A stretch of 64,000 bases of DNA from an uncultured Chlamydiales bacterium (GTDB taxonomy: Bacteria; Chlamydiota; Chlamydiia; Chlamydiales; JAAKFR01): positions 2,315,757-2,379,756 of the forward strand of contig OY969414.1 in the NCBI GenBank assembly GCA_963699155.1, given 5' to 3'. The first letter of the stretch is position 1. Each line of letters opens with the position of its first letter. Made by a program: the position numbers and the translations under genes. Below the pieces are notes generated by a model. The model was not told the origin of the DNA, made no database searches, and saw only the letters and a list, made by a program, of their open reading frames with translations. Below are positions 16,572 through 63,211 of this stretch, one piece after another.

Positions 16572-16685
16572 AAAGACGCAAAGACGCAGAGAATTGGGGG
16601 CGCTTCGCGTACCCTCCCTCTTTGCGACTCTGCGTCTTTGCGTCTTTGCGTTGAATTTTTTCTTTGCGTCTTTGCGTTGAATTTT
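16572..16685. repeat. REP/MITE-like palindrome with GCGCTTCGCGTA centre
   Basis: aaagacgcaaagacgcagag..gcgcttcgcgtaccct..ctctgcgtctttgcgtctttgcgttgaattt; same family as 21402-22382 and 62818-63185. Confidence 0.85.
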
Positions 16686-16696
16686 GAGGAAGATTA

Positions 16697-17957
16697 GTGA
16701 AAAGAATTGTTGTGGTGGGAGCAGGCATTTCGGGGCTAGCAGCAGGATGGTTTCTAAAGAGGAAATTTGGAAACCGCGTGGAGTTGCAGATTTTGGAGAA
16801 GAGTGAGAGAGCTGGAGGGTGGATTAAGACGATTAGGGAGGGAGATTTCTTGCTGGAGGCAGGGCCACGGGGGTTTCAGTCGGGGGGGAAGGGCGAGGCG
16901 ACTCTGGAGTTGGTTAGGGAGCTGGGAGTGGAAAAAGAGCTGGTGAGGGCCAGTGAGGAGGCGAAAAAGAGATATGTGGTGGTAGGGGGGAAGCTGGAAC
17001 TCTTTGGGCCGGGATTGCTATTGAAAAATGGGGTGGTCGGTGCAGTTTTGAGGGATTTGTGCACGCGGAGGGGCGAAAAAAGAGGATGAGACGGTTGGGG
17101 ATTTTGTAGCACGCCGTTTTAACAAGAGGCTAGCTGAGGTTGTGGTCGATCCCTTGTGCAAGGGCATTTTTGGGGGGGATATGCGGAAGCTGTCGATGCG
17201 CAGTTGTTTTCCTGGGATCTGGAAGATGGAGCAGGAGTATGGTTCTGTGTTGAGGGGGATGAGGAAGAGAGAGTCCAGGGGGCTCTATTCATTTAGAGAG
17301 GGGATGGAGACCTTGACGGATGCTTTAGCGAATGGACTGAGGAGGGAGCTACGACTGGGAGAGGGGGTCAGCCAGCTTGAAGAGATCGATGCTGATTGTG
17401 TTGTGGCGGCGCTTCCCGCATGGGCATTGGCACCACTAGTGGGGATCGCTGATCCTTTTACCTATGCGAGCCTCTCACTCGTTCATCTGGGTTGGAAAGG
17501 GAAGGTGTTACCGAAGAGAGGGTATGGCTTTTTAGTGCCAAGCAGGGAAAAGGGTGAGATTTTGGGCATGACTTGGGATTCGGAACTATTTCCCCGAGGT
17601 GAGGGAACAGTGCTGTGCGCGATGATGGAGGAAAAGAAGCCGGAAGCTGCTTTAAGGGCTGTCCAGCGCTATTTAGGGATCGATCAACCGCCCGACCTGG
17701 TCAAAATCACCCATGCTGAGAAGGCCATTACACAATATGAGTTGGGGCATGAGGAGCGCGTCTCAGCCTTTGAAAAAGAGCTGCCCTCGCATGTGAAGCT
17801 CTTAGGAACCTCTTTTTATGGCCCTGGTGTCAACGACGCGATCTTCAGGGCGCGTGCCTTGGTTGACTGGCTTGACCAAGAAAAAGGCAGTAGCAAAGCC
17901 GAGCAGGGCAAAGATTGCTGCAAGGAGCGAAGTGGCTGCAAAAGCTTCCACATGTGA
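16697..17957 (+). CDS. hemG: Protoporphyrinogen oxidase (HemY/HemG type), split by a 1-nt frameshift
   Basis: VVVGAGISGL FAD motif, EAGPRGF, DPLCKGIFGGD, GYGFLVP; removing one A from the A6 run at 17076-17081 gives GEKEDETVGDFVARRF. Confidence 0.88.
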
Positions 17958-19220
17958 CCCTAAAGCTTTTTCTGCACCCAAATAGACTGCTGTCATCAAA
18001 GCAATTCCTGTCGTGGATGCGATTTGGCGAGTAGCGGTTGTGATACCGGAGGCAGCTCCTAATTTTTCGGGGTCTGCTTGAGAGAGTGCCAAGGCCACTG
18101 TGGGCGACATGATCATCGGCAGACTGAATCCAAAACCCAAAAGTCCTGGAAGCAAAATGAAAAAACTCTTGGCATATTGCGCTGTAAAAAATAGCCAAAT
18201 GAGGGCAAAAGCCAGGATGATGAAACCGAGTAAAAGTGGAAGCCGAGGGCCACATTTATCGGCAAAATAGCCCCCTAATGGAGCGACCACAAAAACAGGG
18301 AAGGCGGCCACAAAAATGACTAGGCCGGTCTCTACAGGGGAATAGCCAAGTTGCTCTTGAAAATAGATTGCCCAGAGAATGGTCACCATCACGATGGTCG
18401 AAGTGATAAAGATTGAAACATTGGCGAGAGTGAAGAGGCGGTTGCGAAAGAAGCGGAAATCGATGATGGGGTGTGGGTCTTTGAGTGATAATCGGATGAA
18501 GATTGTTAAGAAAATAGGGCTTAAAGCCAACAGGATAAGCGTTGGAGGAGAGATCCATCCCCAAGAGTTTGCCTGCATTAAACCGACGACGAGCGTGATA
18601 ATGGCACCAAACATCGAGAACATGCCGGAGTAGTGGAAACTCTCTTTTTTCGTTTGATTAGGTTTGAGGATGCGAAAAGCCATGATCATCCCAAATATCA
18701 CAAGGGGGAGATAGAGCACAAAGATGCTTCGCCAATTGATATATTGGGTCAAAAATCCCCCGACAGCAGGTCCTAAGATCAAAAAGAGGGAGCTGATCCC
18801 AGTGTTGATTCCAATGGCGCGTGCTCGTTCTCCATCGGGAAAGGCAGCAATCAACAGCGCACTGGTAGCAGGCACTATTAAGGCTCCTCCAGCCCCTTGA
18901 AGTACTCGAGCTAACAATAAGAACCATTGGGTGAAGCTGAGAGCGCCGAGGACTGAGCCTAAACCAAAGACCGCTAGCCCCCAGATAAAGAGCCTTCTCT
19001 TTCCAAAAAGATCACACAATCTGCCGCCAACGAGCAAGAGAGCAGTCAAACTTAAGAGATAGGCATTGACGATCCAGACAAGTCCCAGATCGCTAAAACG
19101 CATCTCTGTTTGAATCGAGGGTAATGCCACAGGGATCACCGTCGTATCTAAAAAAATCAGAGAAGTGCCGCTGGTTGTGACTAAAAAGATCCACCATTTA
19201 TTCAAGCGTGTCAGACTCAT
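17802..19220 (-). CDS. MFS transporter, DHA2/EmrB-like
   Basis: LDTTVIPVALP, GGRLCDLFGKRR, RVLQGAGGA, LGPAVGG; about 14 hydrophobic segments. Confidence 0.9.
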   Translation of the reverse strand: MSLTRLNKWWIFLVTTSGTSLIFLDTTVIPVALPSIQTEMRFSDLGLVWIVNAYLLSLTALLLVGGRLCDLFGKRRLFIWGLAVFGLGSVLGALSFTQWFLLLARVLQGAGGALIVPATSALLIAAFPDGERARAIGINTGISSLFLILGPAVGGFLTQYINWRSIFVLYLPLVIFGMIMAFRILKPNQTKKESFHYSGMFSMFGAIITLVVGLMQANSWGWISPPTLILLALSPIFLTIFIRLSLKDPHPIIDFRFFRNRLFTLANVSIFITSTIVMVTILWAIYFQEQLGYSPVETGLVIFVAAFPVFVVAPLGGYFADKCGPRLPLLLGFIILAFALIWLFFTAQYAKSFFILLPGLLGFGFSLPMIMSPTVALALSQADPEKLGAASGITTATRQIASTTGIALMTAVYLGAEKALGSHVEAFAATSLLAAIFALLGFATAFFLVKPVNQGTRPEDRVVDTRAIKRGS

Positions 19221-62264: not shown

Positions 62265-62371
62265 AATATACTTAAGTCGTTAAAGATTAAAAATTTTTAA
62301 AAAATATTCTAGTCTTTCCGTTAAATAAAAACAACTGTATAATTTTTTTCAAATAACGAAAAAAGGTTTAT

Positions 62372-62818
62372 ATGGCAGCCGTTCCTCCTGCAACATCACC
62401 GGGTTGGTTTGATTCGTTCAAGGCGCATGGTAGGACATTCATCGAACTGATGGGTTGCGCTGAAGCGAAAGAACCGGTAACCGAAGAGACGCTCAAAAAA
62501 GAGTTTTATGCTGTCATGGGCACAGGAATTATCTCCTGCGTACTCCTTCTCATTGGATTGATCGGCCAGCTCGGGCTCTTCCCGATGGGAGGCTCAGCCG
62601 GCTCAACCCTCACCTTTATCGGCGGAGGAGGCCTCCTGATTACAGCCTACGCCGCCTATCGCCACTGGAAAAAGGTGAAAACCTTCGAAACTGCAGAAGT
62701 GGAGCGGCTCGCCCAAGCGGCCTCCTCCCAACCAGGCCTCGCCGGCCAAGCAGCCCAGCAGGTAGCCGGTTTCTTCAGCAACCGCTTTGCCGGCTTTCGC
62801 AACATCTGGCCTTTTTAA
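62372..62818 (+). CDS. Inc-like membrane protein
   Basis: MAAVPPATS start, two adjacent hydrophobic helices. Confidence 0.6.
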   Translation: MAAVPPATSPGWFDSFKAHGRTFIELMGCAEAKEPVTEETLKKEFYAVMGTGIISCVLLLIGLIGQLGLFPMGGSAGSTLTFIGGGGLLITAYAAYRHWKKVKTFETAEVERLAQAASSQPGLAGQAAQQVAGFFSNRFAGFRNIWPF

Positions 62819-63211
62819 AATTCTGCGTCAAGATTCAACGCAAAGACGCCAAGACGCAGAGACACAAAGAAGGGTAGGGCGCTTCGCGTAGCTCTGCATT
62901 TTCAGGTTCTGTCAAATAGTATGGGGCGCTTCGCGTAGCTCTGCATTTTCAGGTTCTGTCAAATAGTATGGGGCGCTTCGCGTAGCTCTGCATTTTCAGG
63001 TTCTGTCAAATAGTATGGGGCGCTTCGCGTAGCTCTGCATTTTCAGGTTCTGTCAAATAGTATGGGGCGCTTCGCGTAGCTCTGCATTTTCAGGTTCTGT
63101 CAAATAGTATGGGGCGCTTCGCGTACCCTTCTTCTTCGTGTCTCTGCGTCTTTGTGTCTTTGCGTTGAATCTTGACGCAGAATTTGGACGCAGAATTTGG
63201 ACGCAGAATTT
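62818..63211. repeat. REP/MITE-like palindrome with 5 x 47-bp tandem units in its centre
   Basis: Arms aaattctgcgtcaagattcaacgcaaagac and gtctttgcgttgaatcttgacgcagaattt; gcttcgcgta at 62881, 62928, 62975, 63022, 63069 and 63116; 13-bp gacgcagaatttg repeats at the right end. Confidence 0.93.

Follow-up and report, generated by a model that had tools for sequence, protein, structure and literature searches.

Tandem arrays in the genome of an environmental chlamydia lie within two dispersed families of hairpin repeats bearing GNA mini-hairpins

Introduction

The stretch of DNA analyzed here, in the following called the window, comprises 64,000 nt (positions 2315757-2379756) of the complete 2.40-Mb genome of an uncultured environmental chlamydia with a GC content of 47.5%. 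It contains three tandem arrays with units of 125, 112 and 47 bp (arrays A, B and C), which end at or near copies of the heptamer GCGNAGC. The question raised by this locus is whether the motif itself determines the ends of the arrays, as the site of action of an enzyme, or whether it stands there for another reason. According to a 2026 review (PMC13037366), GCGNAGC and GCGNNAGC form DNA mini-hairpins of extraordinary stability, the RNA forms being much less stable, and standard folding parameters miss this stability. Such mini-hairpins are described there at the origin of phage G4, at ssiA of RSF1010 (CCGAAGG) and at the promoters of phage N4 (GCGGAGC). A first-pass annotation, made from the letters of the stretch, had taken the stability of d(GCGNAGC) as established, which agrees with this source (PMC13037366). 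It had further proposed that the motif serves a trans-acting nickase or recombinase, or a process resembling rolling-circle replication, in the capture and amplification of neighboring DNA. Our analysis confirms the underlying observation in part: the three arrays are real and lie inside two dispersed families of hairpin repeats. The occurrence of GCGNAGC at array ends is probably inherited from the architecture of these elements and would not be the mark of a motif-specific enzyme.

Three Arrays and Two Repeat Families

Tandem arrays were detected with Tandem Repeats Finder (TRF), and all array copy numbers given here are those of the assembly. Array A occupies positions 21417-22344 of the window (+ strand, 125 bp x 7.4, 99% matches), array B positions 59614-59960 (+, 112 bp x 3.1, 100% matches) and array C positions 62877-63125 (+, 47 bp x 5.3, 100% matches). 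The motif positions that had been described at their borders proved accurate: GGGCGCTTCGCGTA stands at both borders of array C and GCGTAGCGCCC at both borders of array B, and the right end of array A lies 9 nt past GCGCTTCGCGTA. The one unamplified element that had been noted was found as claimed at 16572-16685. The generalization that all three arrays break at the motif holds for these positions and fails at the left end of array A, which lies in the 3' end of the upstream gene. Nor are the contents of the units unrelated, as had been assumed. Arrays A and C are nested in one palindromic family, here named P, and the array B unit recurs as a dispersed element, here named B, for which the genome contains 46 matches. 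The three arrays therefore reduce to two families and do not represent independent cases.

Within the window GCGNAGC occurs 61 times, compared to 30.6 +/- 6.1 times in shuffled sequences. Arrays A, B and C together with the element at 16572-16685 account for 24 of these occurrences, and the other 37 are near expectation. A CRISPR-like reading of the arrays was rejected, since their units are identical and variable spacers are missing. At gathering thresholds the only Rfam matches of the window were rRNAs, a tRNA and a group I intron; the arrays themselves had none. Public sequencing data which include part of the stretch are represented by a single run, a soil metagenome with a share of 0.09 that is possibly the source sample of the genome; no RNA data set containing it is listed. 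A short-read contig of 77 nt from this run equals positions 63014-63090 and spans a joint between two units of array C. A "skip" joint in contigs of the public run was considered as a collapsed array and rejected, because it stems from another P locus.

The Palindromic Family P

P is a dispersed palindrome of approximately 95-130 bp that is present at 33 loci of the genome. Its left arm begins with ATTCAACGC, followed by three or four tandem 8-mers of the GCAAAGAC type; the tip is GCGCTTCGCGTA, and the complementary right arm, again with three to four such words, ends in GCGTTGAAT. The strand complementary to GCGCTTCGCGTA has CGC-GAA-GCG at the tip, which is the d(GCGAAGC) mini-hairpin. The 10-mer GCGCTTCGCG has 44 matches in the genome, located in 26 P loci and at six non-P sites, nearly all of them in the same context. 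In place of the canonical tip, other P copies have a GCGCAGC variant, a GCGAAGC lacking TA, a module resembling a terminator or no conspicuous feature. The unamplified element at 16572-16685 (+) has word arms that form a 20-bp hairpin, and its tip GCGCTTCGCGTA occupies 16600-16611. Folded as single-stranded DNA it forms a 20-bp stem with a small hairpin cap (-28.9 kcal/mol, z = -6.6), and the end of its right arm is duplicated (26 bp x 2, 16635-16685).

A manual count placed 14 of the 28 core-bearing P loci between convergent genes and one between divergent genes. The tip points either way relative to the neighboring genes. GC skew locates the replication origin at about 0.35 Mb and the terminus at about 1.62 Mb; relative to these, P tips displayed no bias toward one replication strand (11 versus 17). 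Target-site duplications were not seen at the ends of P or of B.

Another module that recurs is made up of a hairpin resembling a terminator, followed by GGGTTGTCCGAGA, a small hairpin that varies (CTGAC-GAA-GTCAG or one of 22 nt) and CGAGGGG. It is located at 16480-16571 and 60440-60520 of the window and at genome positions 70044, 534872, 885291, 912690 and 1344996. At six P loci this module stands in place of the outer part of one arm.

Arrays Nested in P

The unit of array A is composed of a copy of the last approximately 54 nt of the upstream open reading frame (ORF) of 170 aa (20879-21391), a spacer, the P left arm and the tip mini-hairpin. Ahead of the array lies a diverged "unit 0" (21338-21416, +), which comprises the last approximately 54 nt of this ORF, a spacer and, from 21404 on, the beginning of the first P left arm; behind the array a single P right arm (22345-22380, +) closes the palindrome. 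Compared to the later units, the gene-end part of unit 0 is about 80% identical, and its arm and tip are identical save for one 8-nt word. Array A contains a single variant unit. These sequence relations suggest that array A is older at its left edge and that arm and tip were later subject to exchange. Homology across the left joint was considered and dropped, as the local alignment score of 7 was reached by 31% of the shuffles. Since no significant similarity was found at this joint, the first duplication would represent an illegitimate join.

Array C is bracketed by an inverted repeat with 55-nt arms that are 95% complementary, namely the P left arm with its outer stem at 62818-62872 (+) and the P right arm at 63131-63185 (+). 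Its unit consists of the 14-nt tip GGGCGCTTCGCGTA and an insert of 33 nt, and the 14-mer is present at both sides of the array. The insert was found nowhere else in the genome; an exact-match scan of a metagenome contig collection, from which the window's own records were possibly left out, did not find it either. The outer-stem words form an additional array of 13 bp x 2.9 at 63174-63211.

Element B and Its Host Modules

The 46 matches of the 112-bp unit are distributed over 30 loci of this genome. B is composed of a body of approximately 100 nt (CCCCGTTCGCAGGC...GTGCGGGGCCGC) and a mini-hairpin at its 3' end. Of these copies, 39 end in a perfect stem of at least 4 bp closed by a GNA triloop (GTA 25, GGA 9, GAA 5), with at least eight different stems, e.g., GCGCC/GGCGC, GCAC/GTGC, CTCGC/GCGAG and GTCGCC/GGCGAC. 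The remaining ends carry a GTTA tetraloop (two copies), GCGCAGC with a 2-bp stem, an ATA loop or a GAG loop (one copy each) or no hairpin (two copies). GTA, the most frequent sequence (25 of 46), is placed in the loop and not 5' of the stem. The combination of GNA loops with covarying stems identifies the mini-hairpin as the conserved structural end of B. For the element as a whole, the consensus fold of 42 distinct copies (alifold) yielded a weak closing stem only, and single-strand folds (z = -2.5 and -1.6) gave no convincing overall structure.

B is arranged in tandem at five loci, with 8.9, 4.1, 2.1 and 1.9 copies and with the 3.1 copies of the window. Array B (59614-59960, +) contains three B elements with GCGC-GTA-GCGC and an extra mini-hairpin ahead of them, so that its layout is hp-(B-hp)x3, where hp denotes the mini-hairpin. 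The array is contained in the tip of a host hairpin module of the type CCGAGGC ... GCCGAGTG, the left half of which lies at 59595-59613 (+) and the right half at 59961-59975. Many copies of this module with an empty tip exist elsewhere in the genome. A diverged single copy of B, 69% identical to the query unit, occupies the tip of another CCGAGGC/GCCGAG module at 55067-55190 (+, genome position 2370823). At 60134-60217 (+) there are two empty sites, ...GCGCGAGTAG/CCCGCGG... and ...GAGCGAAGCG/TGGAGGG..., which are paralogous to sites filled with B at genome positions 1229843 and 32669. B together with its hairpin forms a discrete insertion when compared with empty paralogous sites; the host modules are of at least four kinds, and in three of these B lies at the tip. 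One type of host module is present in eight copies with the tip GATA, in one copy with only the 10-mer CGCGAAGCGC and in one copy with B plus hairpin. Moreover, the four loci that share the flanks of array B (1944142, 2062235/347, 2095443 and the window) contain one, two, one and three B units, respectively. The array of 8.9 copies is made up of two unit variants, which are ordered in runs.

A search of 30 relatives, three of them congeners, did not find B. Exact-pattern scans for B in genome and metagenome contig collections, from which the window's own records were possibly left out, returned nothing. The surroundings of array B (59400-60500) are a dense mosaic of GC-rich repeat modules, and the same modules are found in different combinations at many positions of the genome.

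Position of the Motif Relative to Array Ends

For the genome-wide comparison all arrays with a period of at least 20, at least 1.9 copies and at least 90% match were collected (n = 50). An enrichment of the motif at array ends, as expected in the first-pass annotation, was present: nine of the 50 arrays have it within 12 nt of an end, compared to a mean of 1.47 and a maximum of six in 1000 trials of random placement. The other 41 arrays are without it. Seven of the nine motif-ended arrays belong to P (three) or B (four). P loci are touched by 11 of the 50 arrays, as opposed to 0.28 on average and at most four in 2000 random trials, and another four to five are B arrays. Family membership is the stronger signal.

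Near the ends of P arms 14 TRF rows were listed, one of which (953889) was set aside since its sequence is unrelated to P. Among the 13 arrays left, four end within 12 nt of the tip motif (2378633, which is array C, 2337173, which is array A, 520285 and 186863), and nine have both ends away from it, in arm words or flank. The overlaps at these other ends are arm words of 8-25 nt, e.g., TCTTTGGGTCTCTG, TGCGTCTTGGCG and CGCAAAGA. Four of 13 is, by estimate, about what a random position within an element of approximately 120 nt would give, so that the motif is not a preferred break point in P. In B, the motif is found at every array joint because it is the 3' end of every unit.

A general excess of GNA triloops on 4-bp stems was also considered for the whole genome. 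It is modest, with C[GTA]G in first place (75 versus 38 expected), and with coding DNA included it was judged too weak to represent a genome-wide signal. Two high-identity arrays of non-coding appearance, 1254616-1255129 (46 bp x 11.2) and 803565-803822 (44 bp x 5.9) of the genome, belong neither to P nor to B.

Candidate Enzymes and the GxxExxY Palindromes

The first-pass annotation had described a system without a transposase in the window that resembles repetitive extragenic palindromic (REP) sequences, and both points were borne out: the window holds no transposase, and the repeats are dispersed, intergenic and hairpin-forming. A search for RAYT/HUH or recombinase genes, as had been recommended, revealed no Y1/HUH, IS110, TnpB or MOB relaxase gene in the genome. 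PF01797 (Y1/RAYT/IS200) had no match in the complete genome, with the control positive in 6 of 14 genomes, and matches to PF01548 (IS110), PF07282 (TnpB) and PF03432 (relaxase) were likewise lacking there. PF04986 (Y2) gave no match either, but its control was silent too, so that this blank carries no weight. The only genome match to PF01541 (GIY-YIG) lies inside a frame of 627 aa, which we take to be uvrC; a free GIY-YIG gene was not found. The idea that a nickase, a recombinase or rolling-circle replication uses the motif to capture and amplify DNA has no support here: no such enzyme gene was found, nine of 13 P-linked arrays have both ends off the motif and 41 of 50 arrays are without it. 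A nickase specific for the motif is conceivable but finds no backing in these data.

The other candidate that had been suggested, a GxxExxY gene enclosed by P arms, does exist outside the window. PF13366 (GxxExxY) has seven matches in the genome. One is an intact gene of 125 aa at genome position 2249367-2249741 (141.8 bits on TIGR04256), which a P left arm and P right arms exactly enclose, the right arm itself being amplified (40 bp x 3.3). This gene-bearing copy is without a mini-hairpin. Since the same arms enclose a gene for a GxxExxY nuclease of the PD-(D/E)XK type, P can be regarded as the gene-less form of a GxxExxY-bearing palindrome. The gene-bearing P element (genome 2249313-2250169) is located directly upstream of the 627-aa GIY-YIG frame.

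A second intact GxxExxY gene and three fragments lie inside another pair of long GC-rich inverted repeats, and the sixth PF13366 match is located between arms of CACAGAG words. One of the three PF13366 fragments (36308-36445) belongs to the window, where it lies in a decayed GxxExxY element of this different arm family at 36214-36693 (+), between GC-rich inverted repeats of 80 nt. A perfect array of 41 bp x 2.2 (genome 1919036-1919124), with GCGAAGC at both ends, is located some 400 bp upstream of the second intact gene. Among the four closest GxxExxY homologs in relatives (60-69% identity), three are enclosed by word arms of the ACAAAGAC/GCAAAGAC type, and a contig end interrupts the fourth; remoter homologs have CACAGAG arms or none visible. 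We found no published account of a link between word-arm palindromes and GxxExxY genes.

Tips of P-like Palindromes in Relatives

P-like arms were detected in seven of the 30 relatives searched. From the two genomes with most matches, a congener and a member of another genus, 20 P-like matches were examined. Their tips consist of a short AT-rich loop (eight), a nested palindrome of CACAGAG words (seven), a nested palindrome of the ATCCT/GGATAG type (three), featureless other sequence (one) or a GNA hairpin (one). At 10 of these 20 loci palindromes of one word family are therefore nested exactly in the tips of palindromes of another. The arms are thus conserved across genera, with a lineage-specific tip at which additional DNA in the form of genes, other palindromes and arrays accumulates. 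This accumulation could reflect a targeting of hairpin tips or the mere tolerance of insertions at this position.

Other Features of the Window

The 23S rRNA gene of the window (45018-48680, - strand) has a length of 3663 nt, compared to the 2925 positions of the Rfam model, and harbors a group I intron at 45985-46720 (54.7 bits).

Origin of the Arrays

The explanation that we favor, and that we consider probable though by no means secured, is that the arrays are local and recent amplifications by misalignment within two dispersed families of hairpin repeats. Short direct repeats would be supplied by the mini-hairpin in arrays B and C and by arm words in most other arrays, and the P and B repeats are expected to fold stably as single strands. 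Where direct repeats and stable single-strand folding coincide, slippage or unequal exchange can start a duplication. Between short direct repeats, hairpins stimulate slipped-strand mispairing or unequal exchange that leads to tandem duplication, as is known from work on Escherichia coli, and Shyamala and coworkers reportedly described REP sequences as join-points of tandem duplications in 1990. The first duplication would arise by replication slippage or by unequal exchange between sister strands, and homologous misalignment would account for the later expansion. In these steps the mini-hairpin would provide the short direct repeat and might also act as a pause site. The structure of the families, the positions of array ends, the direct repeats, the pattern of identity and the lack of HUH-type genes are observed, and we infer from them the mechanism and any stimulating role of the hairpin. 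The concentration of arrays in P loci, the predominance of ends in arm words, the runs of unit variants in the B array of 8.9 copies and the unbiased orientation of P tips also speak for it. Arrays B and C consist of n units plus one extra direct repeat (11-12 nt in B, 14 nt in C), and units within arrays are 99-100% identical, compared to 69-95% for B copies at other loci when aligned to the window unit. Direct repeats, near-identical units and variable copy number, the features of arrays formed by slippage or unequal exchange, are thus present in B and C and lacking at the left end of array A.

Several points weigh against amplification by misalignment. At the left end of array A no direct repeat is present, similarity across the joint is not significant (P = 0.31), and the model leaves the first duplication unexplained in detail. 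The identity of arm and tip in unit 0, beside a divergence of about 20% in the gene end, needs a later exchange or conversion. In the B array of 8.9 copies, the hairpin at an internal joint (GCAC-GGA-GTGC) is unlike both flanking hairpins and is therefore not the product of a simple exchange between the flanks. The retention of the GNA loop in 39 of 46 copies, together with the precise placement of B in hairpin tips, may hint at a structure-specific step. The orientation of B with respect to replication is weakly biased (21 of 30 loci, P = 0.04), the loci not being independent. Finally, variation of copy number among cells or strains is not observable in the present data.

The placement of B leads to an alternative that we regard as possible but rather unlikely, a directed insertion at hairpin tips. 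An enzyme acting on single-stranded or cruciform DNA would cut at or beside GNA hairpins, and modules of body plus hairpin would be inserted 3' of a resident hairpin; repeated local insertion would then build the layout hp-(X-hp)n. The enzyme might be the GxxExxY nuclease or a primase or nuclease of the host. Such a process would fit the clean insertions of B plus hairpin seen against empty sites in at least four host modules, in three of them at the tip, the module series with GATA (eight), CGCGAAGCGC (one) and B plus hairpin (one), and the layout hp-(X-hp)n that arrays B and C share on the GNA strand. A hairpin precedes the first unit in three to four of the five B arrays, compared to three to four of approximately 24 single B copies, and the same direction is indicated by the conservation of the GNA loop, by the deviating internal hairpin of the array of 8.9 copies and by the palindromes nested in P-like tips of relatives (10 of 20 loci). 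In PMC13037366 DNA mini-hairpins are moreover described as far more stable than their RNA forms, with a primase and a phage polymerase binding beside them. These findings are opposed by the absence of any HUH/Y1, IS110, TnpB or relaxase gene in the genome and by the intact GxxExxY copy, which sits between P arms without a mini-hairpin. Neither the 33-nt body of array C nor the gene-end body of array A is a mobile element found elsewhere, and in nine of the 13 arrays linked to P both ends lie off the hairpin. The insertions at tips may merely be those which a palindrome tolerates, and the paralogous B loci do not represent independent events. A more far-reaching proposal would see GNA hairpins and tips as the working sites of a REP-like system of mobility and amplification without an HUH enzyme. 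A structure-specific cut or priming at the tip, perhaps by the GxxExxY nuclease or by a primase or nuclease of the host, would copy B modules and whole palindromes into other tips, repeated local events would create head-to-tail arrays and the nesting in relatives would result from the same process. We consider this proposal improbable.

The arrays might also be functional units maintained by selection, either as arrays of protein-binding sites or as RNA stem-loops which terminate or stabilize upstream transcripts, with the mini-hairpin as their core. The location of 14 of 28 core-bearing P loci between convergent genes and of only one between divergent genes would suit such a role, as would arrays directly behind stop codons and the covariation of hairpin stems. 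It is argued against by the P tip, which faces either way, so that the GNA strand is not consistently the transcribed one, and by the much lower stability that PMC13037366 assigns to RNA mini-hairpins. With B not found in the 30 relatives and with differing P-like tips, no conserved function is visible, and Rfam returned nothing at the arrays; we judge a functional origin quite unlikely. Very unlikely indeed is an artefact of the assembly, such as repeats over-expanded by long-read assembly. The copy numbers do come from the assembly, and the only public run has a share of 0.09. Yet the short-read contig of 77 nt (63014-63090) crosses a unit joint of array C, array A contains a single variant unit, and arrays of the same families occur at many loci, where they differ in period and in the position of their ends.

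Comparison with Known Systems

A scarcity of repeats is commonly assumed for the small genomes of intracellular bacteria; this chlamydia instead carries at least three interlocking families of hairpin repeats. P and B make up approximately 0.5% of the genome, yet they account for about a third of its high-identity tandem arrays. Their regular GNA mini-hairpins offer a concrete substrate for probing the uncharacterized family of GxxExxY nucleases, and if the arrays vary in copy number, they would be useful strain markers for uncultured chlamydiae.

The hairpins described here belong to the same sequence class as the mini-hairpin DNAs d(GCGNAGC) and d(GCGNNAGC), in which a GNA triloop, or in two B copies a GNNA tetraloop, sits on a GC stem and is closed by C-G. 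Previously described cases are isolated sites of priming or transcription start, whereas in this genome the mini-hairpin forms the tip or the end of about 60 dispersed repeat loci. With the REP sequences, bacterial interspersed mosaic elements (BIME) and REP doublets forming hairpins (REPIN) of Proteobacteria, P and B have in common that they are short, dispersed and intergenic hairpin repeats, mostly at the 3' ends of genes, with mosaic clusters and a small gene flanked by the repeats. In contrast to the REP/RAYT system there is no Y1/RAYT gene, and the gene enclosed by arms encodes a GxxExxY protein of the PD-(D/E)XK type. A REP has a single GC-rich stem, whereas the arms of P are tandem 8-nt words, and BIME form alternating clusters, whereas the units of 47-125 bp found here are arranged head-to-tail. 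The conserved GTAG-type head of REP sequences stands 5' of the stem, and the GTA of the B mini-hairpin in its loop.

IS200/IS605 elements and palindrome-associated transposable elements (PATEs) resemble B in the terminal hairpin, the lack of a target-site duplication, the insertion beside a short structured target and a bias of orientation relative to replication, which in B is weak (P = 0.04). They differ in that neither TnpA (PF01797) nor TnpB (PF07282) is present here and that B has a hairpin at one end only. Like a miniature inverted-repeat transposable element (MITE), P has inverted arms, but its only gene-bearing relative encodes a protein with a nuclease fold and not a known transposase. 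Arrays formed by slippage or unequal exchange share with those of the window the layout of n units plus one repeat (B and C), the near identity of units and a copy number that varies among paralogous loci. Unlike these, array A has a left end without a direct repeat. The closest counterparts of P are the word-arm palindromes linked to GxxExxY genes: its arms consist of tandem words, most of its copies are gene-less and one copy holds an intact GxxExxY gene. The features of P in this genome are the uniform GNA mini-hairpin at the tip and the tandem amplification at a third of the loci.

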